A DNA stretch of 64,000 nucleotides from Obrimoposthia wandeli (Eukaryota), in NCBI GenBank assembly GCA_977020255.1, contig CDROCS010002161.1:124001-188000 (forward strand), written 5' to 3'. Position 1 is the first letter of the stretch. Each line of letters begins with the position of its first letter. This document shows positions 36,151 to 64,000 of the stretch, in pieces. A model generated the notes under the pieces. The model saw only the letters and a list, made by a program, of their open reading frames with translations. It did not search any database and was not told the origin of the DNA. A program made the translations under genes and the position numbers.

Positions 36151-37232
36151 ACAGTTGACATCGCTGTCGTTGTACATCTATATAATTCTCATTTCACATT
36201 CAGACCGTCTCCAAGCATGATCAATGGAAAAGTCCGGTACCACTCAAAATGTTAGGAGGGACATCTAGAGTATCTAGAAGAACTTCCTGACATCATGTTC
36301 CAATTGTTTAGCGACAGAACTTCATGACTCATCGAGGAAGTTTTCTTTGTTTATGGAAGTAATAAAACATATTAATAATTTTGCTGGAATACAATTGTAT
36401 TTTTATTTATACTTTTCATTTTAAACAAATGAATAAAGCGAAAATACCATGGAGCTCCATAAATTATTATTCACATTGAAATATTTTCAGTACTTAATGA
36501 CCTAAGGCGTTACTATAATAATAGTATTTTAAATTTACCTAATATATTTCCTAGATAATTTATTTTCACATTTTAAGGTGTATTATTTTTTAACTTTCTA
36601 AAATTATTAATGAATAAAGGCCATTTTGAAAATATTAAAATTTATTCTATTCATCTTGCGAGTTTATCTAAACGCGGCTTCTTGTGAGGTGCCAAAATAT
36701 TTTAGATGTTGCAGAGAAAATGAAAAGTACTTAGAAATGTTCATACGGTGCAAAACAGTAATGCTAATATTTAAGAATAAATTTTATTCCATTAAAAGTA
36801 CAATATTTTTGACATGTAGTTCATTGTGTATAATGCAAAATATGGTCGAAGCTGTAATTTTCCTTTCATCAAACCAAGATTAGTAATTCATTAAAAATTG
36901 ATAGTCTGTGATCCGCGGTTCAAATTGTAAATAACCAAATATTCCAGCTCTAGCTTCTATCCACAAATACGAATATGAAAATCAGAATTTATTGAAATAA
37001 ATTCTGTGATTCATATATAATTTTTACTATATTTACTAAGTTTGTATGAAATAGTACTAGTAGGTACCACACCCAGAAAAGGTTGAGAAGCCCTGATATA
37101 TAGTAATTCAAAATTATCCAGTAATATATTGAGATAAATTTTTTCATTCAGTACTGGTTTTCTGGGTCATTGCAGTTTATTTGGGTTTTATCTTCACTCG
37201 ACACAAAATTTACGTGCTGATAGCTCTGTTAG

Positions 37233-40200: not shown

Positions 40201-42558
40201 TATAAATTTGTAGAAGAGGATAAAATATCCAAGGGGTTCTATAAATATAATATGATTTTAAAAGAAGCACTGAATTTTGATTAAAATTAGAAGTTTATAT
40301 TGATATCTAACTTATAAATCTGATTATGTTCGTCTATAAGGGGAACAATATTTCAACGATGATTAGAAATGTATGTGTCATACGTAATAAGGTTAATTGC
40401 TTTGACAATTACCAATATTGGCCACTCTTTCTCTTTCACAAACATAGATAGTTTTGATTATTAGATTAATATCCTTAGCAGTCATAAATTGACTATCTGC
40501 TAAAGTAAATTGATTTCTGACATACAGTTTTTAACTTACCACATAGTATTGTTACTTTGTATAACTTGTTTGATGAGAACTGCTAAATTTCTATAATCTG
40601 TTTTTCCTCTATCAAATCCAGGAATTTAAATTGAAATAGAATCATATCAAATCGTCTTTTTAAATTTAATTTTAGAGACAACATTATTATTGCTGCTTTT
40701 TTGACCTTGATGAACAGAGATGCAAGAGGAGTTTACATTTCGTGAGAGTTGACAAAAAGGTCAAATATATTCTCAAGTTTCTTATTGTATCCAATAAAAG
40801 GGGTGAAATTGTTTAAAACAATCAAATAATTAAATTTTCATTTATTTGCTTACAAATTTGCCAAGGCTTATTTTGTGCAGATTTTTTTCGGTGTCGGAGG
40901 TGGTGTATAATCATTAGCGACAGTGTCTTCAGCTGGCACCGGGCTCTATTCATAACACTCGTATTCGTATTTTATAATTCCTTGACAATATCTATAAGAT
41001 TAAGAAAGTGATTTTTTATCACTTTCTACATAACATTTTCAATCGTATACCTCCTTGGTTCTGACATAGCACATGCATATGCAATGTCCAGAATACAATT
41101 TGAAGATGAGAAAACGAATTTCACCATATGTCATGTTGAAAGTCTGTTATTGATATTATTAAAAAGTCTTCTATACTGCCTATTTTAGTAAAAGTTTCTA
41201 AATGTAATGTGTATTATTCAACTTTACAATACCTCGTTTATACTATTATATATAGTTGAGTTATTACATTAGTTATGTTAGCCTCTGATACGTGTACTAT
41301 TAACAGAGTAGAACTCACTGAGGGTTATAGGCTAAATAATGACACTAACTATACACTAAAATGTGAAATATACAAGTATAAAAGTGGGAAATTAATAATT
41401 TGTTATTGTACTGTGCATCGACACTGTCGATTGGGTCGGACCGATGCTAAGATAGTCATCAGTGAAAATTTACTAAAAATGTAATAGATACGATGATGAG
41501 ATATTTGGTCTAAATAATTGAATGCTCACTTCAAACTAAGGTATTAGTAACGAATGAAAATTACACATAAATATTTGAATTTGGTTATCACGTCTGCTGA
41601 ATTCCAACCATATTTATTCCATGTTTTCAGGATATTTTGCGAAAGATTTTCGTAATGAAAAGTACTTCAAACTAATATGTTACAGAAATTAGCTTATGCT
41701 AAATATGAAGTTAAATATACTTGCTTACGTGATAAATTTAAGGGTGTTACAAGTTCTGTAGGTAAACTTTATTTTATTAAAAATTGTCATAAAATTACTA
41801 ACCAATATGTGACATTTCTTTCATTAAAACAACATACAAGCGAATTAAATATCCTTATCAAAAACTAAAATTCTTTAAAAAACAAAAGAATTGCATAAAT
41901 TTTGTCAAGGAACTTTTGAAAACTATTCTTTCTTAGAAGAAAAAAGGATCACAGAGTCTTAAAAATTCGTTCAAAGCATAATGTAGTTTTATTCCAGAAA
42001 GATTCAGCAGAAGAAATGTATATTCGAAATTACTCAGATAGTTAGCTTTAAACGTTGCCCCAAGAAAATTTATTATTTAAACAATGACAACGAAAAATGA
42101 TTGTTATTTTCCAATCCAATTTCATTGCCATTTTGCCATATATTTCTATTGACTAAGTCAGGAAATAGACTTTTATGACATTTGTTTATGTAGTATTCAC
42201 TAGACACGTGTGTATTTCATGTAATGGTGTACCGAAGGCATATTGGATTCGGAAGATGGCTTCAAATTCTAAACAGTTCCATGTACATCAAAAACCTTTA
42301 CTCAACAAAAATTGTTTACAATATAATTGAAAAGAATTTAGGACGTTTCGGACTTTTTTCTTCTAATTTTAAATTTATGAGATATTTTATATAATTTAGT
42401 TTAGTTGAAAATGGTGTTATAATAGGTTATTTTTTGGAATTCTAATAAAAAAGATTTGAATCAATTTATAGATTTTTTGGTCAATATTATTATTAAAGAA
42501 TAAGATTTGAGTAAATTTATAATGAATAGTTATCTTTTTTTCTACGTCAGACCTCAGC
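37233..42558 (+). repeat. Copy 2 of the duplicated segment, ending at the Polinton insertion point
   Basis: Near-identical to 27528-33508. Diverges exactly after ...gacctcagc, where AGTAGG begins. Confidence 0.9.
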
Positions 42559-42596
42559 AGTAGGTGTATGTGTCCGGTCTAATCCACACACCCCTT

Positions 42597-42678
42597 CCCC
42601 CCTGTCCTTTAAAACCGTGCATGTGTGTGGAGTGAAATTTCACTCCACACACATGCACAGTTTTAAAGGACAGGGGGG
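42597..42678. repeat. 82-bp near-perfect palindrome in the Polinton terminus
   Basis: Two 41-bp arms centred on AAA|TTT (42637/42638), with one mismatch (42616/42659). Confidence 0.95.
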
Positions 42679-42713
42679 GTCCCAAACATTTTTTTCGCGC
42701 CTATTAGCGCGAA

Positions 42714-43080
42714 AGGCTCGGGACTGGTGTATATCACAGACTTCCTTGGGTGATGGCCGAAAGTCTCGGGACTCGTGTATATCACAGACTTCCTTGGGTG
42801 ATGGGGCGAAAGTCTCGGGACTGGTGTATATCACAGACTTCCTTGGGTGATGGGGCGAAAGTCTCGGTACTCGTGTATATCACAGACTTCCTTGGGTGAT
42901 GGGCGAAAGTCTCGGGACTCGTGTATATAACAGACTTCCTTGGGTGATGGGTGAAAGTCTCGGGACTCGTGTATATCATAGACTTCCTTGGGTGATGGGT
43001 GAAAGTCGACGGATGATGGGTGAAAGTCGTTGGGTGACGGGTGAAAGTCGTGGGTGACGGGTGAAAGTCGACGGGTGATG
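42714..43080 (+). repeat. Subterminal tandem array: ~6 x 48-49 bp, then ~4 x ~19 bp
   Basis: Unit aaagtctcgggactcgtgtatatcacagacttccttgggtgatgggg(cg), followed by gggtgaaagtcg..gtga units. Confidence 0.9.
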
Positions 43081-43275
43081 GGTGTTGGTTGGGGATTGTT
43101 GGTGACTACACATGTAGACGACCCGTGTCATACCCAAGATCCTAACATACACCACCCGCCCCTTCGGGGCGGGCTTCATTCTTGATCTCCAGGCACGAAA
43201 AACATTACAAAAAATAAATTATTTGAATAAGAGGCTCTCATTGGACAATAAAAGAGGGTTAGTAAGATGTTTGTG

Positions 43276-45207: not shown

Positions 45208-45528
45208 ATGGAATTCATTAAAATGAAGAGTCTGGTAACGAAGATTGAAGCAAACATCAGAATAAATTAGAAGAAATGGTACTTAAGAAAGAGGGTCCTC
45301 AATCAGAATCTGTATGCTGCTGTCGCGACCGAGTGGAATCATCGGGTGGAGATACAAGATAGGAGGCTATCAGAACGACGTCGAATCGTGGAGTGTAATA
45401 AGAAGATCGAAATGGAAAAGAAGAAGGTGGATGAAAAAAGAAGAGAAGAGATGGAGGATAATCGTCGAGCAGCAAGAAAGAGAATCCTCCAGATAAAACC
45501 GGAAGAGGGTCCTTCTACAAAAAAATAA
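45208..45528 (+). pseudogene. Small charged coiled-coil Polinton ORF with one internal stop
   Basis: MEFIKMK...*...EIQDRRLSERRR...MEDNRRAARKRILQIKPEEGPSTKK. Homologous relic in copy A. Confidence 0.55.
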
Positions 45529-45691
45529 AATTTTGATTATTATTTTGTCTTTATTGATTATGTTACATAGGAGAATTGACAATATATACCAATCTTAACA
45601 TGAAAGATTGAATCCTGAGTACTTTGTTATTTTAATAAATTTTTGATTTTTTCGTTATAAACAACGGTATTTGCTGCAAATTTAGATAATT

Positions 45692-46180
45692 ATGCAGGAA
45701 TATATTATAGATTTTGAGGCTTTCATTAACAAAAATAGTGATTATATTATAAAAGAATTATGTATTATGGATGTATGCGACATTTTTCATCCTTTGCATT
45801 TCATATTTCAAATAGATATCCCGTTTAAAAGTTTAGATTATAAGAAAAAATTTACTAATTTATATCTAACTAATTACTTTCATTTATTAAAATGGAAAGA
45901 AGGACATAAGGCTTTTTGTGAAATATGTATTTTCGATACAATAACATCTAATTTTGATATAGAAAATGGAATTTTTTATGTTTTAGATGAAATGGATGGC
46001 AAAAAGTATAAGACTTTAAAAAAATATTTTCCTAAATTGAGATTGAATACTTTAAATATTTCACGTGATCATCTATTAAAAATTCCACGAAATATTTGCT
46101 GTCCATATCGTAATCATGGTGACCATTGCGCAGATGAAAAATGTTTAGGTCTATCTTATTATTACTTGACATGTAGATAA
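45692..46180 (+). CDS. Polinton-associated DEDD/DnaQ-like nuclease-fold protein
   Basis: N-terminal YIIDFEAF..YIIKEL (DxE motif); C-terminal CCPYRNHGDHCA, a Cys/His cluster seen in Polinton ORFs of this type. Confidence 0.55.
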   Translation: MQEYIIDFEAFINKNSDYIIKELCIMDVCDIFHPLHFIFQIDIPFKSLDYKKKFTNLYLTNYFHLLKWKEGHKAFCEICIFDTITSNFDIENGIFYVLDEMDGKKYKTLKKYFPKLRLNTLNISRDHLLKIPRNICCPYRNHGDHCADEKCLGLSYYYLTCR

Positions 46181-46349
46181 ACAATTCTTCTAATTCATAA
46201 TTTTCATTCAATTACAAATAATTCTTTTGATTGGAGAAATAAAAAATATTTTTTTCGACCATTTAACAGATAAACAATCCTTCTCAATTTTTTTAATCCA
46301 ATAGGAAAAGAGCATGTGTGCGTAAATTTTAGTTATAAGCAAACACTTT

Positions 46350-48828: not shown

Positions 48829-48859
48829 TTTAATAAAAAAGGTTCAATTTGAATAATGT

Positions 48860-49000
48860 TTATATTCGAAGCCATTTAAGTTTTTTTTTATTTCTAACTA
48901 CAGATTTGATTAATTTTTTCACTTCTTTTTTCTTAATGATTCTTTTTATTGATTTCTTAGGATTTGCTTTACGTTTTACTATAAACTTCTTAAAAGGCAT
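48860..49000 (-). CDS. 46-aa Lys-rich ORF (putative DNA-condensing core protein), below ORF-track threshold
   Basis: MPFKKFIVKRKANPKKSIKRIIKKKEVKKLIKSVVRNKKKLKWLRI*, between the ATPase and the GGF ORF, same strand. Confidence 0.45.
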   Translation of the reverse strand: MPFKKFIVKRKANPKKSIKRIIKKKEVKKLIKSVVRNKKKLKWLRI

Positions 49001-49049
49001 TATAAATTTATCTTTTATGATTGTTATCTATTTGTTTATAAACAGTTAC

Positions 49050-49664
49050 TCCCTTAGAATTAAATATATGGGTTAAAACACGTAAATCATCTTGGCAAGC
49101 TTGTGTAAAGTCAATAAATATATACCCATGTGCTTGTTTAGCAGCATCGTGGAATGAATCAACTAGAAAGTTCTTATTTTAGGGAAATGCCTGTCTGGCC
49201 ACAAAATCAACAACTGTTTGATCTCTAGGATTTTTAAATAAAACTAAGTAATGCACATTAAAATTTCTAGTTCTATGGTGACCTCCTTGGTGAAAAGGAT
49301 TTTGAGTGATAAATATAACTGTTACTTCACGATGTCTTGCAATCTCGTAAATAAATTATTAAAGTCCGATTCCTTGTTAGCTTCCTGATACAAATCATCA
49401 ATTATTTTTACATCTTCTTTTTTCAATCTTTCCCACCAATTTGCATCAAATCCTTCTGTTGGGGTTTCTATATGAAACTTATAGATCCTCTTGAATGTGG
49501 AGGGCCCCAACGTGAGTTCTTATAGAAGCAGGACTTAAGGATGGTTGTGGCCTACTTAATGTTATAGTTGCCTGTCTCAATTCTTATCTGAAAGTGTTTG
49601 TTTTCCGATGTCTTTTAATCTGAAGGGTTTAGAACAACGCTTTCTAATGTAGGAAATCGTTTAT
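49050..49664 (-). pseudogene. Polinton FtsK/A32-like packaging ATPase
   Basis: Degenerate Walker A (VVLNPSD*KT), Walker B IIDDL, NLFTR-(fs)-RHREVTVIFITQN, HYLVLFKNPRD, RQAFP, HGYIFIDF. Confidence 0.85.
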
Positions 49665-49818
49665 TGTTAACACACTAAACTAGCACAAAGCAATACGTTT
49701 ACGTACGTATTTCTAAAAAGTTACAGTAAATTCCTAAGACTTCTGTAAGTCTCTACACAAGTGGGGATGAACCACGTATCGATTCTAATTTAGGTTTGGT
49801 TAATTTCGTAGAGTCTTT

Positions 49819-50430
49819 ATATGGGCAATTCAAGTTATTCAAAATTTCACGATTTACTTTAAACTCTTTCAATATAGGCAATTCAAGTTATTCAAAATTT
49901 CACGATTTACTTTAAACTCTTTCAATATAGGCAATTCAAGTTATTCAAAATTTCACGATTTACTTTAAACTCTTTCAATATAGGCAATTAAAGTTATTCA
50001 AAATTTCACGATTTACTTTAAACTCTTTCAATATAGGCAATTCAAGTTATTCAAAATTTCACGATTTACTTTAAACTCTTTCAATATAGGCAATTCAAGT
50101 TATTCAAAATTTCACGATTTACTTTAAACTCTTTCAATATAGGCAATTCAAGTTATTCAAAATTTCACGATTTACTTTAAACTCTTTCAATATAGGCAAT
50201 TCAAGTTATTCAAAATTTCACGATTTACTTTAAACTCTTTCAATATAGGCAATTCAAGTTATTCAAAATTTCACGATTTACTTTAAACTCTTTCAATATA
50301 GTCAATTCAAATTATTCAAAATTTCACGATTTACTTTAAACTCTTTCAATATAGGCAATTCAATTTCACAATTTACTTTAAATCAATATATGACAATTCA
50401 CTTTCACAATTTACTTTAAATCAATATATG
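49819..50430 (+). repeat. 53-bp tandem array (~10 near-identical copies) plus two degenerate ~38-bp units
   Basis: Unit gcaattcaagttattcaaaatttcacgatttactttaaactctttcaatatag at 49825, 49878, 49931 ... 50302. Confidence 0.95.
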
Positions 50431-51448
50431 ACAATTCACTTTCACAGTTTTACTTTGAATTGTTATACTTCTTACACGAAATGGAAAGCCGTCCGTTGTT
50501 CGATTCGCAAGAGTCCTGGTATCAGTGGTGCTGCTCGCGCTGCGTATGAGATTGAGAGCCGTTCGATCCTTCCTGGCTTGGCTCCGACTTGTCTGAGGGC
50601 GCGATTCGATTTTGTGTTGTCTTCTTCTTATCGACTTATATTCTGGCTATTCTTGTTTGTTTCTGGCCATTTATATAAGTCCAATTTTCCTCCATATCCG
50701 CCCCTCCTCGAGTGATAAGTGCTTCTAATTGATTCCTGTCTGCACTTGCTCAGCAGGCTCGGCTGCTCGCCTTCTCAGTTCCTAGAATGATCTAAAACAG
50801 AGCACTTAACAAAAGCACTTACTTGTAGACAGCCGTCCAAGTTCCCTGTGCGGCTCTGTACAGTAATGGATTATTGCTGGATTTCTTCTTAATTGAGTGA
50901 CTGACTCAACTCTCCAAAATGAGTTAATTAATTCCTTAAATTCGTTTAATTTGGACTTTCTTAACCGGCTAATTCTGTTTTTTGGGGCCCTTTTTGTTAA
51001 CGTTAACTTCTATAAATACTTACACATCACACACGACCTTCGTGGTCCCTAAATATTTTATTACAATTTTAATCTCATCAATTTCAATTTTGATATTAAA
51101 TTTATCTAATTCTAACCTTGCTTTCAAGGATTTCTATTTCACTATAAAATCAATTAATTATTTAATTTATTTCAAAACCTAAACCTAACATATCTCGGGG
51201 GTTCTAAAAAAGTTACGTCCCCGGAACGTATCGATTAAATTTACTAGCCTCTGGACTACTGATTTTAAATCATCCCCACTAATTTCAATCATTCAAAACT
51301 CATCAACATGTCTAATGTTCAACAAAATTCGGAACTACTGCCAAGATAGTGAATAAATCGGACGAAGTCACAAATATTCACTACATATATTATACACAAG
51401 TGTTTTAGAAAAGGAAAGGGGCAGGAAAGGATGAAATGTAACGTTTTA

Positions 51449-51978
51449 TCAGTTGTCGCAGGTGAGGTCAATTGTTACTGTTGGCTGGTTCCGACTGTCC
51501 AAATAGAGCATGACCTGCTCCAGGGGTAGGTCTGAGAAGGACGGAATGTCCCCGAGGAGTAGGTCCATCTGCTGGAACGGGGTCAGGTGTGGGCTCTCGA
51601 CAAATAGATCGAAATCCTGCCCGTACAGCTCATTGTTCTCTATCCATAACCGTCTGGCCTGTTGCCATGAACGGCAGTCGCGGCTAGACCGCCACCGTTC
51701 GCGGATGCCAATTTGCACATCGCGACGGCGCGCGAGGCACACCGAGCATTGGCAATGCTCGCCACCAATGCAACTGGTGGGTGAGTGGGTGCCCTTGGGT
51801 CGTCCACGGCACTGGAGCGTCCACTCGGAAAAGGGTACCGGCACATCGGGCATGTGATGTGGCCGGGGGGTCGAGCCTTGGCCCACAAATAGAGGCAGGA
51901 CTCGTGGAATTTGTGCCGGCACCCGGCAGGGGAAGCCGACTCTGCCCAGATTTTCTCGAGGCAAATTGAGCAAAGCAT
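51449..51978 (-). CDS. RING-H2 E3 ligase-like protein 3, with a -1-frame C-terminus (Cys cluster + SIM-like TIDLT)
   Basis: CSIC..CRHKFH..C..CPMC in ORF 51640-51978. The Cys cluster shared with the other two RING ORFs (C....HCQCSVC..RR) lies in ORF 51449-52012, the -1 frame after CCCTTTT. Confidence 0.75.
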
Positions 51979-52269
51979 CTGCGCAATAATTACTCTTTAA
52001 TTTGGGGTTCAATTGGGTCTAATATTAATTTATGAATTTAATATTTTAATTTTAATATTATAAGCCTTAGCATTTAATCCTACCGAATTCTGCTCTGATT
52101 TTAGGCATGTTTCTCACATTCATACTAAGCATAAAAATGGTAATGGTCATTTTACAGTTTCACAAGATTATACAATTATGATTACAATTATGGTAGCTAA
52201 TTTATCGCGGTATGCGATACACAGGGGTAGTTCATGATGTCACGTTTTAAGTCAGAAAGTTACCTTCGG

Positions 52270-52575
52270 TTACTGCTGGCTGTTGGGCTGGCCTGCGCGT
52301 CGCTCCTCTACGCAGAACGAACACCAGCAGTCGCAGATGTTTTTCCAGCAGTGTACAATGGGTACCACTGCTTGGAGGCTGTCCCGGTTGTAGACATAGT
52401 GCACCGAGAAGGTTGCTCTGCACATCGGGTAGTTTGGGTAGTCGAGGGGATTGTTGTTGTTGGCGATTGGGATCCATGTCTCGAGGCATTCGACGTGGAA
52501 CTGGTGGTCGCAGTTGTTGGGTTTGGTGTAGAGGTCCACGATGTTCTCGTAGCAGATTGAACATTCTCCAGACAT
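52270..52575 (-). CDS. RING-H2 protein 2 (7th ligand Cys->Tyr)
   Basis: CSIC-x11-CDHQFH..C...NYPMCRATF; C-terminal HCWKNICDCWCSFC..ERR. Confidence 0.8.
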   Translation of the reverse strand: MSGECSICYENIVDLYTKPNNCDHQFHVECLETWIPIANNNNPLDYPNYPMCRATFSVHYVYNRDSLQAVVPIVHCWKNICDCWCSFCVEERRAGQPNSQQ

Positions 52576-52635
52576 TACTGTGAGAGGGTTGATGTTGAAT
52601 TTGGGCTCGATTGAGGGCTGATGGTTTTGTGATGT

Positions 52636-52935
52636 TTACACAAAAGTGGTCGGATTTTGTCGTTCTGACAGACAGTAATAACACCAACATTCTCTCAAAT
52701 TCTTCCAACAGAATATCACTTGTACATCTACATCCTCTTGGTTGGTTTCTATTCTGATTAACCTTGTGAATTGTCTTCTGCATACAGGGCAACGAGGGTA
52801 TGTTGGATAGGGAGTTTCTCCATATGTTCTGATCCATTTTGATAAACATTCCTCGTGGTGTAAGTGGTTGCAGGTATCGGGTCTTGTTCTTCGTTCGGTT
52901 AAATCTTCGAAACATATTGGGCATTCTTCGGACAT
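52636..52935 (-). CDS. RING-H2 protein 1
   Basis: CPIC..CNHLHH..C..CPVCRRQF; C-terminal FCWKNLRECWCYYCLSER. Confidence 0.85.
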   Translation of the reverse strand: MSEECPICFEDLTERRTRPDTCNHLHHEECLSKWIRTYGETPYPTYPRCPVCRRQFTRLIRIETNQEDVDVQVIFCWKNLRECWCYYCLSERQNPTTFV

Positions 52936-53046
52936 TCTAAATACATGATGACAATTAATTTCTACACGAGTTTTACATATTTCTACTTATTTGTACAATC
53001 ACTTCTAAATATTTCTACATATTTTTTACACACTAATTTATCTACA

Positions 53047-53055
53047 ATCTCCTCT
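53047..53055 (-). promoter_or_regulatory. Candidate polypurine tract
   Basis: AGAGGAGAT on the minus strand, 6 nt after the stop of the 791-aa ORF and directly before TGTAGA. Confidence 0.45.
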
Positions 53056-53061
53056 GACTTA

Positions 53062-55437
53062 TCATGTCTTGATGGGAGGCGGAGGTAAGGGTCGCAATTC
53101 CACTTCCTCCATTGTGGGTGTGTTACAGCATCGCAGTCCTTCGCATTTCCGTCGTATTCTTGGGCATACCTGACAGCCTTTCACGCACACGACTGTCAAG
53201 AGAACTACTGCTGTTGACACTACTGCCATTCCAATTAGAGCATTGACCGCTGTTATTCCGCTGTCCGATGATTGGTAATCATACTTCATTTTGTTGTTTG
53301 TCGGTTTGAATGGCGTTTCCATTGGTGTTGATCGGTTTCCATGTATTATGTCCGATTTTCTAATAACTCGCGGATTTGGATATTTTGTTTTCGGTCTAAC
53401 AGGTATTATTAATTGAGATTGGAAATGATATTTGGGATCTAGTGGAATCGTTCCCTTCACTCTTGTCCTCTTAATAATTGTACTTTGGTTTCTGGGATCG
53501 AGCTCTTTTCCTTTCACTTCTGCCTTTGTTATGATTACTTTTGGCTTCTCGGAATGGCGTTTACTTCCGTTTACCTTTGCCTTCTTTTTGACTATGATTG
53601 GTTTTTTGGAGTAGCGTTTACTTCCTTTCACCTTTTCATTTTTTATGACTATGATTGGTTTTCCGGGAATGATTTTCCTGGGTTTGATATTTATACTGAG
53701 TCCACGAAATCGACGTGTCTGGTATCTTAGAGTTATGTAGTATATTTCACCTGTTATTAATATGATTATGGTAGAGGTCTCTCTAGCATTGCTGGGAATT
53801 CGGTTACATAGACATTCTGTATCAAAATGTGGTACTAACATTTGGTTTTGAATTTCAAATCTGATTCCACCATCTGGATTGGGACACGACACTGTTACTT
53901 TGTCAGTTTCTAACAATCTGAAGAATAATCTAACGGAATTCCATACGGTTTTACGTCGTCTACCTGTGATCATAATCCTGTCGACAACTTTCCAGATGTG
54001 CTCGTCGTTAGGCAATATTAATGACTTTGTTCGGATAAATTGAATAATCCGTTTCCTTTTTGATATTGTTATTCGTAGGTATAATACATTTTCATGGTAG
54101 AATAATATCAGTCGGTAGTAAAGTTTGTGTTGGTCAATCTTTATTTTGATCTGGCGAATGACATACGATTTCTGATCGACATTTTCGGTTGCTGATGTTT
54201 GTAGGTGAATGTCTATTACGTAATTTGCTTTTATTAGAGGTATTTTTATGGATAACGCCCGTATCGTATCTTGTCTCCATTTACTGATCATGATCTCATA
54301 ACCAGCCTCGGTCGTGGTGATTTGCATGATCAGCATGATTCCTATGATCGTCTGGTTCCTAATCTCAGGAACATCTCTAGGATAACTCAAGTTACTCATG
54401 TAGTATGGTTTTTCCTCGATATGTTCGTATATCGTTGGCTGATACTCTGGTGCTGGTTCATTTAGGAATGCTGGTCTTGGTATCATTGTGTTGAATTTTT
54501 GTAAATTCATTTGACCTGCTTGTCTTGCGAGATCATGACGTTTCTTTTTCGATCTCAACTCTATCTTTGTACAACAAAACAAAATGAGCAATATTATTAT
54601 TATGACTCCGATAGTCAATGCTAGTATTGGATTAACCAATTCTAGAATACCATAACGTATTGCTGGTATCCCTTTACTCTTGATGGTTAATATTTTAAAT
54701 TTATGTGTACTTTGGTTGGACATGTCACTGAGAAGTACTATTTTAGTTTGTCCAAATGTGTATCCTTCACATGTGACAACACTAATTCCATAATGTCCAT
54801 TTAGTGTTTCCATTTCGGTCGCTGGGATTACACATATTCGTCCTGGACATCCTTTCACACACATGATCATCACGGCTTTACTATAAGACGTCTTGATTAT
54901 TTCTAGGGTGTTGTCTAGATTTCTCAGATGTAGATTATATCCAGGTAGCGTCATCAATTCAGCTTTACTGGTTGGAATGGCTTGTAGTACCAATCCAATT
55001 ACTACTCTGTAGATCAATCCTTGTGTAACAGTGCACAGGGCCTTGATTGTCCTTTTGCAAAGGGTTTTGATTATTATTCGTTTGAGAGACATCTGTTTCT
55101 GGTTAGGTCGTTTTGTCTGGTTTGTCTGTCGTTGCTTTGACATTTCTTCAATTCCAGTTTTCCTGATAATCAACTGTACCTGTTTTCCTTGTATCATCAA
55201 CTTTCCGAATCCATTTTTGGCGGACAAGCATGTTTTATGTCCTTCCATCGTTTCGATTATCACTCTCTTACTTCCATACTCACGTGTTTTGATGACATCG
55301 CCGTCGAATATGTACGTCGTACCTTTTGTATCCGCATCTTTTTGTATTTCCTTTACAATTCGTTTTCTTTGCCTGCATCCTGTGAACATTGCTGATATTC
55401 TATCAAGTGTGCGTTGTCGGTCAGCTTCATAATCCAT
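53062..55437 (-). CDS. 791-aa multi-segment membrane protein in the env position (not a recognised env class)
   Basis: Hydrophobic segments VVIGLVLQAIPTSKA, LALTIGVIIIILLILFCC, IIGIMLIMQITTTEA and ALIGMAVVSTAVVLLTVVCV. Cys-containing ~105-aa segment between the first two; basic KVKGSKR repeats. Confidence 0.7.
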   Translation of the reverse strand: MDYEADRQRTLDRISAMFTGCRQRKRIVKEIQKDADTKGTTYIFDGDVIKTREYGSKRVIIETMEGHKTCLSAKNGFGKLMIQGKQVQLIIRKTGIEEMSKQRQTNQTKRPNQKQMSLKRIIIKTLCKRTIKALCTVTQGLIYRVVIGLVLQAIPTSKAELMTLPGYNLHLRNLDNTLEIIKTSYSKAVMIMCVKGCPGRICVIPATEMETLNGHYGISVVTCEGYTFGQTKIVLLSDMSNQSTHKFKILTIKSKGIPAIRYGILELVNPILALTIGVIIIILLILFCCTKIELRSKKKRHDLARQAGQMNLQKFNTMIPRPAFLNEPAPEYQPTIYEHIEEKPYYMSNLSYPRDVPEIRNQTIIGIMLIMQITTTEAGYEIMISKWRQDTIRALSIKIPLIKANYVIDIHLQTSATENVDQKSYVIRQIKIKIDQHKLYYRLILFYHENVLYLRITISKRKRIIQFIRTKSLILPNDEHIWKVVDRIMITGRRRKTVWNSVRLFFRLLETDKVTVSCPNPDGGIRFEIQNQMLVPHFDTECLCNRIPSNARETSTIIILITGEIYYITLRYQTRRFRGLSINIKPRKIIPGKPIIVIKNEKVKGSKRYSKKPIIVKKKAKVNGSKRHSEKPKVIITKAEVKGKELDPRNQSTIIKRTRVKGTIPLDPKYHFQSQLIIPVRPKTKYPNPRVIRKSDIIHGNRSTPMETPFKPTNNKMKYDYQSSDSGITAVNALIGMAVVSTAVVLLTVVCVKGCQVCPRIRRKCEGLRCCNTPTMEEVELRPLPPPPIKT

Positions 55438-55680
55438 TCAGAATTGATTCAGTAGTCGGTTTTGTGGATAAAATATTGCTTCATTCACTATGTTATCCTC
55501 GATCCTTTCGTCTAAATACACAAGTACTTGGTTTGTTGGTCCATTTGGTCTCTTCATCTTTACAAACTGGAATCTTTTACTATCGGTTCTCATAGATCGG
55601 AGACATTTTCGGATAAGCCAAACATCAATTAGTCCTATCAACACTAATAGCATCATCAGTGCCGGTGTATTGTACTGCAT
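55438..55680 (-). CDS. 80-aa ORF with N-terminal hydrophobic segment
   Basis: ALMMLLVLIGLIDVWLIRK. Same frame as both flanking large ORFs; its stop abuts the next ATG (TGAATG). Confidence 0.5.
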   Translation of the reverse strand: MQYNTPALMMLLVLIGLIDVWLIRKCLRSMRTDSKRFQFVKMKRPNGPTNQVLVYLDERIEDNIVNEAIFYPQNRLLNQF

Positions 55681-55737
55681 GATTTAGTTGTTGATTTCTT
55701 TGAACCATGAACTATTTCCGTGGTTGGAGCCTATCTC

Positions 55738-58700
55738 TTATGCTCCCGTTATCGGCATTAGACAACTTAACAAGCCTAGTGCTAGCAATCTTTGGTATTG
55801 ATAGCTGGGCACTGATGTTGTAGCTTCATTTGTTTCTCGTTGTTGCTTCCTCTTTTCGGAGTATTTCTCTATTTCTCGAACGAGTAACGGTTTGAATTCC
55901 GTATCTGGTCTATTCTGTTTGGTGTAGACCATCGCTTCCTCTGGTGTATGACCATGGTACTCTACCAACAAGGATACACCTATGGTAGGCGCTAACATTG
56001 TACCTTTTTTCTGATATATCAGAACGCCGTTTCCTTCTGTGACTTCGGCTTGGATGGTTTGAGTCAGTTTCATCAGATGTTGTTGTGCATCGTTTATCTC
56101 CCGATTGGAAGCATGTATGTATCGAGTTGTGTCATCTTCAGTATTTTGACACAGGCTGATTATTTCATTTCCGACTTCAACAATGTTAATTACTCGGTTG
56201 ATACTGTGGAACTTTAATCCAGCAGTATCTATATCTCCTGGATGACATAGAAATACTTTCGGCATTATCTGAGTAATTTTGTCGACTCCGGCTAAGAATA
56301 AACCGGTCAACGATAGTGATTGGAGGAAATTCTTTTCCTTTGGATCCTCAGGGATGTCATCCATCCGTCTCTGTTCTTGCAACAGGAGTTGGTAATTTGA
56401 CAATTGTCCCAAAAAATTAAGGTTTGGGTTCGCGATACTTCGTTTTTCCTGTAGGTATTTCAGCGCTTCTAGTACCTGCATTCGTCTAGTCTTTATTAGA
56501 TATGCTAATACTAGGGTTGCTGATCGGGAGATTCCTTTCTGACAATGTACCAACACTTTTCCTTGGTTTTGGAGTTCTCTGTGAAGTATCTCGTTTGTTT
56601 CTACGAACCATTCGAGAAGATTAGCCTCCATTGAGTCTTTTACTCTTAATGTCATAGCTCTGATAGTCTGATATTGTGATTTGTGATTCATTGTAACATT
56701 GATCACGTATGTTATCCCTTGTTCCAACAGTTTCTTTTCGTCTGTTGCATCTTCCACATTTCCGAGGTATAACTTATCTGGAATGATCTCACTCATTGGT
56801 GGCATTAATTCTGACTCTTCAAGTTTTAGTCTTTCTAATCTCTTCTCTAGTTGTTCGTCGACGATGGATAATTTCGCCAGTTTCCTTCCTCTCAGCATTC
56901 GTATCGCTGGAGAGATATTCGTCTTTGTCTCTGATGTCTGTTCCTTTGTTGGTTCCTCTTCCGACTCAGTCTCTTCTGCGGATTTAATTCGTCTTTCTTG
57001 TATATTATGTTTCACGAATTCTATGATTCGTCTTTTTCTACTCTCTTTAGCTAATTCAACCTCCATGGTTCTTCCGAAACGCTCTATTATGTTATCTTCG
57101 GATTCTGTTGACTCTGGATCGCTACTTTCAAGTTCGCTATCTTGACTAGACTCGCTCGAAGGGTATTCTGGTATGTCTGTCTGAACTGAAATTAATGAAG
57201 GGGTTAGAATAATTGGATTGACTGGTCCTGCGTGTCTGAGAATCGGATACGGTATTTCACTATCCTTAAGTATCTCAACTTGGAACTGTGCTCCATAGCA
57301 CATGACAATTGTTTCCAATTTACCCATGATGGACAATCCATCAAAATAGGTGACACTCAGCTTAGATATCGGTGTTTTCGCATAATTAACTAAATGGACT
57401 CGTATCTCGGTTGATGACGGCCATCGATTTTTTAGTAAAATTATAATTTCGTCCTTTATCGATGTAATCACACTTGGCGCGGATGATACTATTTCAGCAT
57501 GATATTTTGGTTTGATTGAGGTTGTCACTTGTTCTCGGATCATATTGATTCGTTGTGGTTTATTTTTAGCTTCCCACTTCCGGTATCCGCTGTCAATGCG
57601 TAACTCTGCCGTTGCTTTAATGATTTTATTGTTTGTTATTTCTGGTTGGGTTGGCGAATGAAATACTTCTATTACGCTCAACCTTACAGATACTTCCGTT
57701 TGATCTGTGTTTAATTGGTGAGATTCCGGTATACTACATACAATGGTCTTTCCGTCAAAGTATTTGGTGTCCATCTGACATATTATCTTTTCAGTGTCAG
57801 CGTCGATTAAATGAACTCTCATTATGTCTCTTCTCCCATGTGAATTACGTAATACCATTATTACATCGTGGTATTCTTGTTTGAGTCTTTTTAGTGTACC
57901 ATGAAGTATGTGACCACCGGTCGGTTCTTTTTCTTCCTGACTGGCTAGTCCTGCTTCAGTACTGTCATAGTTCTGCCATGCAACTATGTTTGGTGTTAAT
58001 GTGATTTCGATTATCACTTTCTCAGTTGTAAACACATTGGAGTTTAGATGCAGTTCTGCAACTAGTGTATTTCCGTCGAAGTATGACACTCTAAGTTCGC
58101 ATAGAAATTCGTTTGTCAGTGCATCTTTCACAATGACTTCTTTCGCCACATCTGTTGGTTGTGTTTTTTCGAAAACGACTATGATCTCTTCGTTTTCTTC
58201 CAATATCTCTTGTGGTGCGATGTGTCTGATCTTTTCTTTTTCCTCTTGGTGCTTCATTCTGAGCATGCCAATTCTTGCTGGTTTTTTCTCGTTACCACTT
58301 GTCATCGTATTTATGTAGTTTCGATCACTTACCATTCGTGTAAGTTTAATGGTATTGGTATTCGGCTTCAATTTCTGTGATCTTAGCTCATATCGTGACG
58401 CATTATCTTTATTCGGTACTAGTTTACATCGATTCGCATGTACAATCATTGGTTCCTTGTTCCGGTTCTCCTCGTTGATTACTTTCAAGTTCGTTGAGAT
58501 TGTCTGTATCACCTTGTATGGTCCTTTGTATGGTCTATGAAGTTTAAACGATAGACCTGGTTCGATGACTGGATAAAATATCATCACTTGATCTCCGACT
58601 CTAAATTCAAGTGGTTTTGCCTTTTTGTCATATTGTTCCTTGTAACCTTCTTGATTGAATTTCAGTTTCAATCCTGCTTTAGTCCAAGCATCTTGTAATC

Positions 58701-59511
58701 TTTCTTTCATAACGACAATGTATTGTTCAGTTTCTAGATACTGAGATGTTGGTTCAGTCCACTCCAGATCCATTGGCATATTGTTCTGTCTGAGATACAT
58801 CAGATAGAATGGTGTGTGACCCGTCGCCTCTCGAACTGAATTCCTGTAAGCATATAAACATGAAGATAAATATTTATCCCAATCCTCTGAGCAATAGGAT
58901 TGTACCATCATACATAAAGTTTTATTAAACCTTTCTACTAGACCATCGGTTTGTGGGTGATATGGTGAAGTTTGTAACTTCATGATTCCGAATATCTTCG
59001 ATACTGCTTTTATTACTTCTCCGGTGAAGTTCTTACCTTGATCCGTTAACAACTTTCTAGGCACTCCGTATCGAAATATTATATCTTCCACTAAGATCTG
59101 CGCTATTGTTTCAGCCTTCTGGTTTTGCATGGGATATGCTTCTACCCATCTCGTCATGTAGTCCGTAAATACTATGACGTACTTGTTTCCTTTACCTGAT
59201 TCTCTCAATAGTCCCAATATATCCATCGCTGTGAATTCCATTGGTGCCAAAGGAACTGGCATTGGTTTCAGTGGAACTTTAGTACGAGTTCCAGTGTCTT
59301 TTCTGGTTAAACATACTTTACATTGTTTACACCATTGTTTTATGTCGTCTTCCATACCATCCCAATGGTACTTCTCTTTGATTCTGGCTATTGTCTTTCG
59401 TCCTGACAGATGTCCTCCTAGTGTTCCATCGTGATACTGGATCATCACTGCTGTTTTCAATGACTTCGGAATTACTACTACTATCTTTCCGACATTGTTG
59501 ACAATATACAA
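55738..59511 (-). CDS. Ty3/gypsy integrase fused to 3 x YFDG domain, dual-specificity phosphatase, pseudophosphatase and a hydrophobic C-terminus
   Basis: H..GGH...C..C zinc finger, AMDILG / TDQGKNF / TDGLVERFN (DDE), YKGPYKV (GPY/F). DSP core LYLGN...VLVHCQKGISRSAT...NPNLNF; second DSP-fold copy with VLIYQKKGTMLA. Confidence 0.92.
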   Translation of the reverse strand: MYIVNNVGKIVVVIPKSLKTAVMIQYHDGTLGGHLSGRKTIARIKEKYHWDGMEDDIKQWCKQCKVCLTRKDTGTRTKVPLKPMPVPLAPMEFTAMDILGLLRESGKGNKYVIVFTDYMTRWVEAYPMQNQKAETIAQILVEDIIFRYGVPRKLLTDQGKNFTGEVIKAVSKIFGIMKLQTSPYHPQTDGLVERFNKTLCMMVQSYCSEDWDKYLSSCLYAYRNSVREATGHTPFYLMYLRQNNMPMDLEWTEPTSQYLETEQYIVVMKERLQDAWTKAGLKLKFNQEGYKEQYDKKAKPLEFRVGDQVMIFYPVIEPGLSFKLHRPYKGPYKVIQTISTNLKVINEENRNKEPMIVHANRCKLVPNKDNASRYELRSQKLKPNTNTIKLTRMVSDRNYINTMTSGNEKKPARIGMLRMKHQEEKEKIRHIAPQEILEENEEIIVVFEKTQPTDVAKEVIVKDALTNEFLCELRVSYFDGNTLVAELHLNSNVFTTEKVIIEITLTPNIVAWQNYDSTEAGLASQEEKEPTGGHILHGTLKRLKQEYHDVIMVLRNSHGRRDIMRVHLIDADTEKIICQMDTKYFDGKTIVCSIPESHQLNTDQTEVSVRLSVIEVFHSPTQPEITNNKIIKATAELRIDSGYRKWEAKNKPQRINMIREQVTTSIKPKYHAEIVSSAPSVITSIKDEIIILLKNRWPSSTEIRVHLVNYAKTPISKLSVTYFDGLSIMGKLETIVMCYGAQFQVEILKDSEIPYPILRHAGPVNPIILTPSLISVQTDIPEYPSSESSQDSELESSDPESTESEDNIIERFGRTMEVELAKESRKRRIIEFVKHNIQERRIKSAEETESEEEPTKEQTSETKTNISPAIRMLRGRKLAKLSIVDEQLEKRLERLKLEESELMPPMSEIIPDKLYLGNVEDATDEKKLLEQGITYVINVTMNHKSQYQTIRAMTLRVKDSMEANLLEWFVETNEILHRELQNQGKVLVHCQKGISRSATLVLAYLIKTRRMQVLEALKYLQEKRSIANPNLNFLGQLSNYQLLLQEQRRMDDIPEDPKEKNFLQSLSLTGLFLAGVDKITQIMPKVFLCHPGDIDTAGLKFHSINRVINIVEVGNEIISLCQNTEDDTTRYIHASNREINDAQQHLMKLTQTIQAEVTEGNGVLIYQKKGTMLAPTIGVSLLVEYHGHTPEEAMVYTKQNRPDTEFKPLLVREIEKYSEKRKQQRETNEATTSVPSYQYQRLLALGLLSCLMPITGA

Positions 59512-60310
59512 GATTTCTTATTTTATCGAGTATTTTTTTCATCATTTCATCATTTAGATCTCCTTTCACTAACAATTCTTTGATTAGACTCAGTTCTTCA
59601 TCTTCTTTCTGTTCCTTTATGATTTCTTTGTCTATTTTACCCGTCTTCAGCAAAATCGTTAGTAGATTTGCATCTCCTTTTTGGTCGTTGGTTTCATCTT
59701 CTTCTGGAATTATGTTTCCTTTCTCGTCTACATTTGTCAACCTCGACAAACAGTCTGCGTTGCCATTCGACTTTCCGGTTCTATAACGGATTTCTAGATA
59801 GAATTCGGCCAATTTCAGAAACCATCTGTTTAATCTACTCATCTCGTCTCTATGTTTATACAAGAACTGTAGTGGTTTGTGGTCTGTATACAGGAATACC
59901 TTTTGTCCTAGCAAGTATTGTCTGTACTGTCTACATGAATATACTATGGCTAGACATTCCTTTTCGATGACAGAGTATCCTCTTTCGGCTCTGTTTAATC
60001 CTCTACTCGCATACGCGAAGACGTGTTCTCTTCCTTCGTCATCCTCTTGTCCCAATACTGCTCCTACAGCATAGTTACTTGCATCTGTCATTAGTATGAA
60101 TTGTCGGTTTATATCTGGAAACGCTAATATTGGTGCTTTTATCAGTCTTTCTTTTAAATGCTCGAACGCTTGTTGTGTTTCTTTTCCCCATATGAACTTC
60201 TCATCTTTTCTCGTCAACTTTTTCAATGGTGTTGCTATATCTGAAAAATGTTCAACAAATCGTCTATAATAGTTCGGAAGACCTAAAAAACTCTGTATTT
60301 CCTTAACAGT
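59327..60310 (-). pseudogene. RT connection and RNase H of the Ty3/gypsy pol (disrupted)
   Basis: VKEIQSFLG, ILMTDASNYAVGAVLGQ, YSVIEKECLA, YTDHKPL, YRTGKSNGNADCLSR. TAG at 60311-13 and a frameshift near 59535. Confidence 0.92.
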
Positions 60311-61540
60311 CTATGGCGCTAAATGCGCTTTTACTTTCTCGATCTTTGCTGGATCAGGTCGAATACCTTCTTTCGATACTATATGTCCTAAAAATGTTAC
60401 TCGCTCTTTAGCCCATTCGCATTTTGTAGGTTTAACTTTTAATTTAGCGTTTTCCAGTCTTTTAAATACAACTTCAAGATTTTTTAAATGTTCTTCGAAC
60501 GTCTTCGAAAATATTATTATGTCATCGATATAAACCATCGTGTTTGCACACGATGCGAGTACAAAATTCATGCAACGCTGAAATGTTGCTGGTGCTCCTG
60601 TCAGTCCGAATGGCATTTTTTCGCATTCGTATAGTCAATCTCCGCAGGAAAAGGCTGTTTTGTGTTTATCCTCTTCCTCTATCTCGATTTGCCAGTATCC
60701 ACTCTGCAAATCCAATGTCGTGAAATAATCTGAATTACCTAATTTATCAAGCATCTCTTCAATTCTAGGTAATGGATACACATCTTTTCTTGTGATCTTG
60801 TTCAGTTCTCTGAAATCTATACAGAATCTTATTTTTACATCCTTCTTTTTAACCAACACCATAGGTGCTGAGAATGGTGAAAAATTCGGTCTAATTACTC
60901 CTGTTTTAGACATATCTTCAATCTGACTTTTTACTTCATCTTGTAACTGTAATGGTACTCGATATGGTCTTCTTCTGACTACTTTGTCTTCTGTCAGCGG
61001 TATTGTGTGTTTTATGACAGGTGTTTCTCCTATGTCATATGGATTTTTTGCAATTACTTTTGGAAATTTATGTATTAGATCAAGTAATTGTTTCTTTTCT
61101 CTAGTTGTCAGTCTTTCTGATTGGATTACTATTTCTTCGTAATCATTCGTGTCTTTATCGAGTTTCATAGCACACACAGTGGGATTCTCCATCTGTGCTA
61201 TCTTTCCCAACCTCATTCCTCTGTATAACAGGACGTCGTTGTTGGTTGTATTCATCAGTCTAACTGGTATTTTGTGGTTTTCAATCAGATATACTGTACT
61301 CACAATTGGTAATTCATATTTTTCTATGAAATCCCGTGATGGTTCGAACACAACTGGTCCTTTATCTTCTGATAATGTGTGGCCTTGAATAAGAAATTGT
61401 GATCTTTTACCGATTTTTATAGGATTTTCTATAATTACATCAATTTGATTTATCTGTCTGTTTGACGTACTATCTTTCAATCTTGGATCTTGTAAATCGA
61501 TACTTATCACTTTGAGTTGTGATAGTACATCCATTCCCAA
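60311..61540 (-). pseudogene. Reverse transcriptase of the Ty3/gypsy pol (one in-frame TGA)
   Basis: RRRPYRVP, FCIDFRELN, YPLPRI, LDLQSGYWQI, TAF...MPFGL, YIDDII. TGA at 60635-37. Confidence 0.95.
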
Positions 61541-61623
61541 ATTGTAGGTTCAGGACATTCTTTCATGATTCTAACTGGTATAGTGATCGTATTACGTCCA
61601 ATTATAAATGTACATGGTAATAT

Positions 61624-62330
61624 TCACGTCACTTTTACAGGGTCTCCGTTGACCGATACCAAGAATTCATCTGGTTCTGCCATTGTTCGTTTCTGTTCCT
61701 CTGTCAAACAATCTTCACTTACTATCGAAGCTACAGCACCTGTATCAATTAAGGCTTTTACTCTTAAATTATTTACTCTAATGATAGCTGCTGGTCGCTG
61801 TGCTCCATTTATATTTCCCATATGGTATATTGTATTTATTGAGTTATTAAATTCTGTCTGTCCACTTCCTTTGTTTGGATAGTGAAATCTAATATTTCTC
61901 ACTTTTCGATCTATTATCCTTCTACAAATCGGACATGATACCATTTCCTTCGCACATCTCCGACATGTTCTCACATGTCCGCATGGTAAAAAGGCAACTT
62001 CTATTTTGTTGACCATGCAAACTGCGCATTCCGGATCTTCTAGTACGTATTCTAGTTCGTTTATGTACTCTTTCTCTTTTGTTTCAATTGTACTGTCATC
62101 TTTATCTTTTAGTAATTCAAAAATTGATCCGTATCCGTTTCGCGTAGTTTTTATTTTTAATTCTACCAAATCTATGATTCTTTCTGCTTCTTTTGGATAT
62201 AGTCTTCTCACGAATGACACTACCGGTGTGTCTTGTTGAGCCAAAATCTCTTTCCGTGTGATTTGGTATTCGATTATACATTCGGTTTTTTCTGTTCTTT
62301 TTGCTTTATTTTGTTTTTAAAAATACAAAA
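61624..62330 (-). CDS. IAP-type RING finger directly followed by retropepsin protease
   Basis: CAVCMVNKIEVAFLPCGHVRTCRRCAKEMVSCPICR (C3HC4, IAP/MDM2 type), then VKALIDTGAVASIV. Frame open upstream to ~62330. Confidence 0.9.
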
Positions 62331-63163
62331 TTCGCAAAATTCATGATGTAAAGTTTTCTTAGGCAACTCGAGAGTATATCTGTCTTTGATTCGTTCTTTT
62401 TTACACTTGTGGCATTTAATCACGTCTTTACCATCCTTTTTATAGCAAAAAGTCCCTTTTTTGCCAATTTTTTAAGTCTTGGATCTTTGAAAGTTACTTC
62501 TCGATATTGTTCGTCACATTCGTTTACTTCTCGCATTACTTCGAATATGTCCTCAATTTGACTGTTTGTTATCACTCTGCCTACTATTAAAGCTGATTCT
62601 CCTTCTGGAATCTCATCACTGTTATCGAAATCGGGTGCTTTCCCCCTTTGAATTTCTGGTACGTTTGAAGTTTTCAGTTTCAAAAGGAATGGACAATTTG
62701 GTGCATCTCTTTTATGACGTTTCATTGGGTTTTCATTGTTTTCCCAATTTCTAAATTTTACTCTACACCATACGCATCGTACTACTCTCTCAGAACCATA
62801 ACTATTTGTCGTGTCTAACATTTGCAACCCTGTTCTCGCCATTTTACGTGACATTTCTTTTGAATAGTACGGTTCTAGTGATCTTCGTCTATTTCTCTCG
62901 AATCTAAGAGGATCTCTTTCTAATAGATTCACATATGTTATTTTCCTCCTCGTCGTAGTTTGTAGTTCGTCGTCTACTCCTTTGTAGTGAAGTATCGACT
63001 TTACTAGCACTTCCTGTTTCCTGTTTTGGTACGGATTTCCCATACGGAACATAGTGTATTTTTCCTTTTCAACTATAGGTCCTCTCAACATTTTTATCTC
63101 TCTCACTGAACTGTCGTTCTTAAAACTCTTGTTGTTTGGTAATATTATTATTCCTTCAAACAT
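62330..63163 (-). CDS. BIR domain(s) of an IAP module in the retroelement polyprotein
   Basis: BIR1 has the exact C-x2-C-x16-H-x6-C spacing (CVWC...H-KRDAPN-CPFL). A second, degenerate BIR (LAKKGLF..[fs]..DVIKCHKC...HHEFCEF) spans a frameshift at ~62435. Confidence 0.85.
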
Positions 63164-63231
63164 TCGTATTACTCCATTCCAATCATGACTGGACTACCAC
63201 AATCTGTGAATATTCTAGCATTTAACTGCAA

Positions 63232-64000
63232 TGTATTATTCAACTTTACAATACCTCGTTTATACTATTATATATAGTTGAGTTATTACATTAGTTATGT
63301 TAGCCTCTGATACGTGTACTATTAACAGAGTAGAACTCACTGAGGGTTATAGGCTAAATAATGACACTAACTATACACTAAAATGTGAAATATACAAGTA
63401 TAAAAGTGGGAAATTAATAATTTGTTATTGTACTGTGCATCGACACTGTCGATTGGGTCGGACCGATGCTAAGATAGTCATCAGTGAAAATTTACTAAAA
63501 ATGTAATAGATACGATGATGAGATATTTGGTCTAAATAATTGAATGCTCACTTCAAACTAAGGTATTAGTAACGAATGAAAATTACACATAAATATTTGA
63601 ATTTGGTTTAAAAAACAAAAAAATTGCATAAATTTTGTCAAGGAACTTTTGAAAACTATTCTTTCTTAGAAGAAAAAAGATTCACAGAGTCTTAAAAATT
63701 CGTTCAAAGCATAATGTAGTTTTATTCCAGAAAGATTCAGCAGATGAAATGTATATTCGAAATTACTCAGATAGTTAGCTTTAAACGTTGCCCCAAGAAA
63801 TTTTATTATTTAAACAATGACAACGAAAAATGATTGTTATTTCCCAATCCAATTTCATTTCCATTTTGCCATATATTTCTATTGACTAAGTCAAGAAATA
63901 GACTTTTATGACATTTGTTTATGTAGTATTCACTAGACACGTGTGTATTTCATGTAATGGCGTACCGAAGGCATATTGGATTCGGAAGATGGCTTCAAAT
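63232..64000 (+). repeat. Third partial copy of the duplicated segment
   Basis: Matches 32156-~33215 and 41212-~42260, with an internal deletion of ~290 bp. Confidence 0.9.

Follow-up and report, generated by a model that had tools for sequence, protein, structure and literature searches.

Three small RING-H2 genes in a defunct, cargo-rich Ty3/gypsy element of an abundant family, inserted into a Polinton-type ATPase gene of Obrimoposthia wandeli

Gene content of the element

The analysed stretch of DNA (64,000 nucleotides, positions 124,001 to 188,000 of contig CDROCS010002161.1 in the O. wandeli assembly GCA_977020255.1; hereafter the window, whose numbering is used throughout) contains a large Ty3/gypsy retroelement on its minus strand. 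Leftward from 63193, Pfam identified a BIR domain, a RING domain, an aspartic protease motif, reverse transcriptase (RT), RNase H (RH), integrase, and dual-specificity phosphatase, and the order protease, RT, RH, integrase is that of Ty3/gypsy elements (Metaviridae). The BIR-domain frame (62420–63193; E 2.5e-12) is followed by a RING domain of the C3HC4_3 type and the protease motif (61624–62316), by a fragmented RT and RH region (59327–61549), and by integrase, spacer, and phosphatase domains (55738–59517). Next in order are a short hydrophobic frame (55438–55683) and a 791-amino acid open reading frame (ORF) in the position of env with two strong transmembrane (TM) segments (53062–55437). 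Beyond this membrane ORF lie three small RING frames, a TATA word at 50677, tandem arrays at 49819–50460, and decayed Polinton-type genes. The copy is dead: its pol region is fragmented, and at 63233 the element is interrupted by a different repeat. With the 5′ part cut at this point, gag, the primer binding site (PBS), and the 5′ long terminal repeat (LTR) are beyond the window. A second copy of 50460–63200 was not found within the window, and the partner LTR lies outside it. Taken together, the locus would represent the 3′ two-thirds of a cargo-rich element that landed near codon 67 in the ATPase gene of a Polinton.

The family is very abundant in the sampled organism. Five public sequencing runs contain the stretch, and four of them were compared over 50470–63240 at 85% likeness: X1, X2, and X3 stem from one sample, and X5 belongs to a second study with thin cover and none over 50470–51747, for which region it was not used. 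No RNA run is among the public runs listed as containing the stretch. The statement on abundance follows from the approximately 245,000–289,000 contigs per run that matched in X1–X3. Since at several positions no contig has the letter of this copy, the public sample probably derives from another individual or a close species. Loose ends of contigs at 63233 in X1, X2, and X3 indicate that the family extends past the cut. Further loose ends at 58886–58888 and at 63172, found in several runs, mark sites at which this copy departs from the family by a whole block of sequence. The RT/RH piece has 412 relatives at E ≤1e-30, and the Pfam entries DSPc, BIR, and RING are absent among the 120 listed of these 412. 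The gypsy RT/RH relatives P0008 and P0047 carry other extra domains, PF12796/PF13606/PF13857 and PF01661, which we take to be ankyrin and Macro domains, respectively.

The first phosphatase domain (approximately 56389–56772) has an intact HCxxGxSRS motif, and its closest match in the PDB is DUSP10/MKP5 (E 1e-24). A second phosphatase-like domain (55738–56390, minus strand) apparently lacks the catalytic Cys, Pfam counting two stretches in all, and from their motifs the two appear to form a tandem of an active and a pseudo-phosphatase. The spacer between integrase and phosphatase contains, at 57148–58215 on the minus strand, three similar blocks of about 45 amino acids that were recognized by eye, each closing near Y-F-D-G, and has no Pfam match. 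For the integrase–phosphatase frame no relatives were found in viral_contigs or genome_contigs, nor for its residues 400–1259 among proteins of 692–2204 amino acids. Integrase, hydrophobic frame, and membrane ORF share one common frame with stops at 55740, 55686, and 55440 between them. The membrane ORF (53062–55437, minus strand) resembles two or three units of signal, ectodomain, and TM segment, and its tail past the first TM segment contains the words P-E-Y and I-Y-E-H, which resemble sorting or phosphotyrosine motifs. It has no confirmed relative: its one match consisted of 11 stretches to the K/I-rich part and was judged compositional. Weak feature scores of 0.76–0.84 to tails of class II fusogens may serve as a lead only, and single-sequence fold models of the spacer and the membrane ORF (pLDDT 35.9 and 51.1) were unusable, for the latter outside its helix.

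The three small RING-H2 frames that a previous sequence-only reading of this DNA had reported downstream of the membrane ORF are indeed present: Pfam recognizes each of them, on the minus strand, as zf-RING_2 (E 5.6e-10, 5.1e-6, and 2.5e-8), but they are not all intact. RING1 (52636–52935; 99 amino acids) is an intact RING-H2 protein with a second Cys motif, C-x6-C-x-C-x2-C. RING2 (52270–52575; 101 amino acids) has the same two features and lacks the seventh zinc ligand in this copy, and RING3 (51449–51978) is frameshifted shortly after its RING domain. The C3H2C3 ligand pattern is thus complete in RING1 and in the RING3 domain. RING1 and RING2 share 34% identity across 102 amino acids, and the second Cys motif, situated about 23 codons past the final zinc pair of the RING domain, is common to all three; in RING3 it reads C-x5-C-x-C-x2-C and lies 68 nt beyond the last zinc pair in a different frame. 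We infer that the three are paralogs, of which RING3 has suffered a frameshift in this copy. This other frame of RING3 terminates with the word V-T-I-D-L-T, which we liken to a SUMO-interacting motif (SIM). In the seventh-ligand codon of RING2, and likewise at one of the stops that separate integrase, hydrophobic frame, and membrane ORF, the family contigs depart from this copy in a near-fixed manner, and these defects therefore look private to it. Upstream of every small RING gene is a spacer that is AT-rich or non-coding. Judging from the domain family, the proteins would be RING E3 ubiquitin ligases. A metagenome scan with RING1 yielded 40 generic RING loci of 29–48% identity, none of which had matches to pol, the membrane ORF, or the BIR frame. 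RING1 matches an equine herpesvirus RING domain weakly (E 0.0075), and most of the proteins nearest to it in language-model features are small RINGs from viral clusters (Nucleocytoviricota and Preplasmiviricota; 0.92–0.94). This likeness is only a lead on the origin of RING1, and the genes may have been captured from a virus at an earlier time.

Insertion site and probable extent of the 3′ LTR

To the left, the element interrupts a decayed A32-type packaging ATPase gene of Polinton type (49026–49456, minus strand), of which only residues ~67–210 are present, in pieces 66–83% identical to the closest relatives; the part with Walker A is missing. A 58-amino acid piece matched 226 of 228 candidates, and the comparisons use the 120 listed. 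Among these, the closest relatives align from residue 67 or 68, that is, from window position 49456 or 49453 downward. When the 93 of these 120 relatives that are full length and include Walker A were used to build a profile of residues 1–66, no credible match appeared in the six frames of the whole window (best −4.9 bits). Because of these two results, we place the break about one third into the gene. The sequence-only reading had correctly seen a gypsy insertion into this ATPase, but located it at the start of the gene; the break is mid-gene, at approximately 49457. An rve integrase lies near the ATPase, the combination used to recognize Polintons/Mavericks, and the label accordingly depends on predicted ATPase and integrase genes and a weak match to protein X. 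Neither the Polinton integrase nor the ATPase piece has relatives in viral_contigs.

The word CCCAACA (49457–49463, minus strand) ends at 49457, on the ATPase break, and fits the YNYAACA half of the integrase-end consensus TGTTRNR...YNYAACA of animal Metaviridae (PMC3601003). As the background of YNYAACA is only 0.8 per kb, a chance occurrence so close to the break, only a few bases away, is unlikely, and we regard this word as the probable 3′ end of the retroelement. The last 55 nt of the inferred unique 5′ region (U5; 49457–49511), a stretch picked by eye, are predicted to fold into a stable hairpin (−17.8 kcal/mol, z −3.66, reached by 0 of 200 shuffles). An end at 49665, as proposed earlier, does not hold: the letters GTGTTAACA do end there, but the junction with the ATPase is 208 bp further left, and the "ACA" coincides with the start of an AATAAA (49660–49665, minus strand) followed by a GT-rich word and misses the consensus by one letter. 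AATAAA followed by a GT-rich word is the usual layout at the boundary of the repeat region (R) and U5 (PMC3601003), and AATAAA is a candidate poly(A) signal. Further to the right, the tandem array and the TATA box noticed previously were both found again. The former comprises 10.3 copies of a 53-bp unit (49819–50363) and is followed by 3.6 copies of a 38-bp unit up to 50460; the latter is a TATATAA word at 50677 (50670–50677, minus strand), and a second TATA-like word is situated at the downstream end of the array (49816–49821, minus strand). Rfam gave no match in 49000–53500.

The right end of the LTR is less obvious. The sequence-only reading had proposed a 3.4-kb LTR opening directly behind the membrane ORF, where a purine run, AGAGGAGAT, is followed by TGTAGA (53055–53041, minus strand). 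These letters are there, but they are at chance level and this is probably not the LTR start. The run has 8 purines, a pattern found 11 times over 10.1 kb of the internal region, and it failed a filter of 9 purines in 10 that 8 other sites passed; counting TGTAGA itself, 53046–52966 contains six TGTA(G/C/A)A words, beside a 10-bp repeat. The consensus is instead matched by a TGTTRNR that starts at 51190 and, together with the end at 49457, fits the Metaviridae pattern, whereas 53046 and 49665 each deviate by one letter. The start at 51190 pairs with the end at 49457 in 6 of 7 positions, as opposed to 4 of 7 for TGTAGAT at 53046. We therefore favor, as the reading that is probably though by no means certainly correct, a short 3′ LTR of approximately 1.7 kb (1734 bp, 49457–51190, minus strand), with the RING genes in the internal part of the element. 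Such an LTR would hold the arrays and TATA words in its unique 3′ region (U3) and R, the AATAAA at 49665, and a U5 of about 190 bp. An 11-bp inverted repeat at 49760/51270 was also considered as LTR ends and rejected, since 51 of 200 shuffles contain one.

The public contigs lean toward an internal position of the RING genes. A single X5 contig spans 52730–53112 unbroken and ties RING1 to the membrane ORF. The summed depth over RING1 and RING2 is 1.13–1.21 times that of the membrane ORF, within the scatter of the bins of that ORF (0.73–1.30), and 0.66–0.68 times that of pol; it is not doubled and takes no step at 53046, while an LTR is expected to be at least 2 times as deep as the internal region. 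The assignment of the RING genes to the gypsy element rather than to the Polinton thus stands, as the contig bridges RING1 and the membrane ORF and RING1 and RING2 are as deep as the internal genes. At 52130, most family contigs leave this copy (loose ends in X2, 50; X3, 37; X5, 1), in three runs from two studies, and most copies therefore carry on with different sequence there. Left of this point the depth falls to approximately 2% of that of RING1/RING2 in the RING3 bin, RING3 being a minority variant in the contigs, and to approximately 0.1% in the bin 50470–50895. At 51219, close to the candidate LTR start (51184–51290, minus strand), the depth (439,906 in X1) far exceeds the mean of its bin (95,078), which implies an island of about 90–140 bp shared within the family. 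A short shared island amid variable DNA is as expected for a conserved junction of polypurine tract (PPT) and integrase attachment (att) site. The word CG(A/G)GGACG, which may precede the PPTs of gypsy elements, is present at 51216–51223; 7 of 100 shuffles reach 2 matches to it, and two scans of viral_contigs yielded no locus that matches pol as well. Judging from the contigs, RING1 and RING2 would be standard equipment of the family and RING3 a third paralog in an exchangeable slot that begins at 52130.

Several points weigh against a short LTR of these limits. TGTTRNR occurs at 4 sites in the 3.7 kb of 49400–53100, the tract upstream of 51190, with its run of C, is no ordinary PPT, and a hairpin at the 51190 start is no better than in shuffles (z −0.23). 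The limits of the island near 51219 were obtained by arithmetic and not observed. The segment 50470–50895, within the proposed LTR, is about 20 times shallower than RING3, which would require a swapped or rare U3. Summed contig depth is not copy number and was weighed lightly, and the contig comparison spans 50470 upward, with the R/U5 part (49457–50470) outside it. None of the loose ends listed is at 53046 (7175 further ones exist besides those listed); this is weak evidence, because where an LTR truly begins, contigs of the flank share no more than ~30 letters with the element and may go unmatched. The second LTR, PBS, and target-site duplication are all beyond the window.

Among the alternatives, it is conceivable but unlikely that this copy is a chimera in which the family sequence stops at 52130, while RING3 and 49457–52130 come from another subfamily or element by template switch or nested insertion. 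The LTR would then belong to the donor and exclude RING1 and RING2. The sharp loose end at 52130 and the low depths of the RING3 and 50470–50895 bins suit such a history; any donor, however, would have to be a relative, RING3 being a paralog of RING1 and RING2 with the same motif spacing, and the scenario differs from the short LTR in history only. Rather improbable, in our opinion, is a long LTR of approximately 3.6 kb (53046–49457, the original proposal with its left end corrected), the U3 of which would open with RING1 and RING2, vary from 52130 onward, and deliver ligases with every insertion and solo LTR. This arrangement would account for the 8-purine run, single T, and TGT within 15 bp past the last large ORF, the depth of RING1/RING2 in X1–X3 is slightly above that of the membrane ORF, and Ogre LTRs reach 1.9–6.5 kb (PMC6431247). 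The pattern at 53046 is, however, common by chance, misses the att consensus, and pairs poorly with the 49457 end; moreover, depth does not double, no listed loose end falls on 53046, and the shared island near 51219 goes unexplained. The 3.4-kb LTR reaching to 53046 is thus probably wrong, and two cassette copies per insertion with further spread by solo LTRs are unsupported, since the right boundary is probably not 53046. It is equally doubtful that the U3 of a ~3.6-kb LTR serves as an exchangeable ligase cassette, with RING1 and RING2 fixed and RING3 as an optional, SIM-bearing ligase resembling SUMO-targeted ligases; if true, a gypsy element with a kit in the style of large DNA viruses (IAP, MKP-like phosphatase, E3s) would seed E3 genes genome-wide. 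Finally, it is highly improbable that the RING genes are cargo of the Polinton or another DNA virus adjoining the gypsy element, with the 49457 junction produced by deletion: small viral RING clusters do provide the nearest look-alikes of RING1, but RING1 and RING2 are bridged to the membrane ORF and equally deep, the break coincides with an att-like motif, and neither an A32 ATPase nor the second Cys motif occurs at any of the 40 metagenome RING loci.

Other features of the window

Fragments of the same Polinton-type element occur inverted relative to each other at 24916–25937 and 45408–46196 and at 12265–12361 and 48856–48959 (76–81% identity). An 82-bp palindrome (98%) at 42559–42678 is followed by 48/49-bp and 21-bp GC-rich arrays (42709–43084), with related words at 23497 and 26471; palindrome and arrays could be a Polinton terminus. 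The region 27085–42559 contains near-identical duplications (30122–33508 and 39170–42559, 98.5%; 27524–29416 and 37229–39170, 93%), parts of which recur at 63232–64000 and there cut the gypsy element. Remains of another gypsy RT/RNase H, unrelated to the first and further decayed, are located at 14532–16000 (minus strand), and a 515-amino acid protein kinase ORF without introns at 5192–6739 (plus strand; Pfam E 4.9e-25).

Comparison with known systems and possible function

The closest parallel is Burro/GYPSM1, the giant gypsy element of planarians. According to a review (PMC6431247), Burro likewise combines gypsy pol with cargo of BIR and RING type that is linked to apoptosis and ubiquitination, is very abundant, and possibly encodes one long polyprotein plus separate accessory ORFs; BIR and RING domains were also found in the predicted polyprotein of the present element (Pfam). 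The env-like region of Burro, in contrast, lies between gag and protease, whereas here, in a copy cut off upstream of BIR, a membrane ORF follows the integrase, and the features named in the review include neither a phosphatase nor a 3′ cassette of small RING-H2 genes (PMC6431247). MATH, BCL2, ankyrin, and dUTPase, which are Burro-type cargo, were not found in the visible part of the element, and a dUTPase-like domain between protease and RT had no Pfam match in 60638–61549 or 61627–62316 at E 0.01. The element thus resembles Burro, as described in the review, in a different layout. We did not file it as Burro, the dUTPase-like domain not having been found.

LTR elements of bdelloid rotifers similarly have family-specific accessory ORF3s between pol and the 3′ LTR; their cargo, however, is env, a GDSL esterase, or a DEDDy exonuclease, and their LTRs measure 159–551 bp (PMC5408684). 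RING ORFs are not among this cargo: the word "RING" does not occur in that paper. Some retroviruses, too, carry accessory genes at their 3′ end, where these overlap U3. MMTV sag, HIV nef, and foamy virus bel are examples; in the present element, by contrast, the evidence leans against a location in U3. E3 genes inside an LTR, the striking claim of the sequence-only reading, are therefore probably not what this locus contains.

By kind of domain, the cargo resembles that of large DNA viruses, which counter host defenses with proteins such as the baculovirus IAP, PTP, and IE2/PE38 RING proteins and the herpesvirus ICP0. BIR plus RING, a dual-specificity phosphatase, and small RING ligases are common to both; here, however, they are carried by a retroelement, and among PDB entries it is the cellular MKPs that the phosphatase approaches more closely. 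Retrotransposons are usually lean. The combination of cargo genes was not found in a literature search whose coverage was largely without subscription papers, Repbase, and supplements, and its absence from print is not established.

A genomic RNA started in the 5′ LTR would encode one long polyprotein that comprises the BIR, RING, pol, and phosphatase parts, and the 3′ RING genes would be read from spliced or internally started RNAs, one RING set being delivered per insertion. BIR plus RING proteins block caspases as IAPs do, and small RING-H2 proteins recruit E2 enzymes. The IAP-like BIR and RING domains and the MKP-like phosphatase would accordingly be suited to damp caspase and JNK/p38 responses, and the small RING-H2 proteins might enlist E2 enzymes of the host for the ubiquitination of its restriction or cell-death factors, with the net effect that cells with an active element would survive. 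Counter-defense is thus the most likely function of the RING proteins as far as can be predicted from their domains, and a duplicated RING set with an exchangeable slot fits an arms race between host and element.

Burro provides a precedent for retrotransposons that carry apoptosis and ubiquitin domains; the present family differs in layout and adds a phosphatase fused to the integrase as well as a cassette of small RING-H2 paralogs that varies between copies. RING1, being both intact and small, would lend itself to assay. If the cargo is a working counter-defense, the targets of RING1 and RING2 would point to host factors directed against retroelements.

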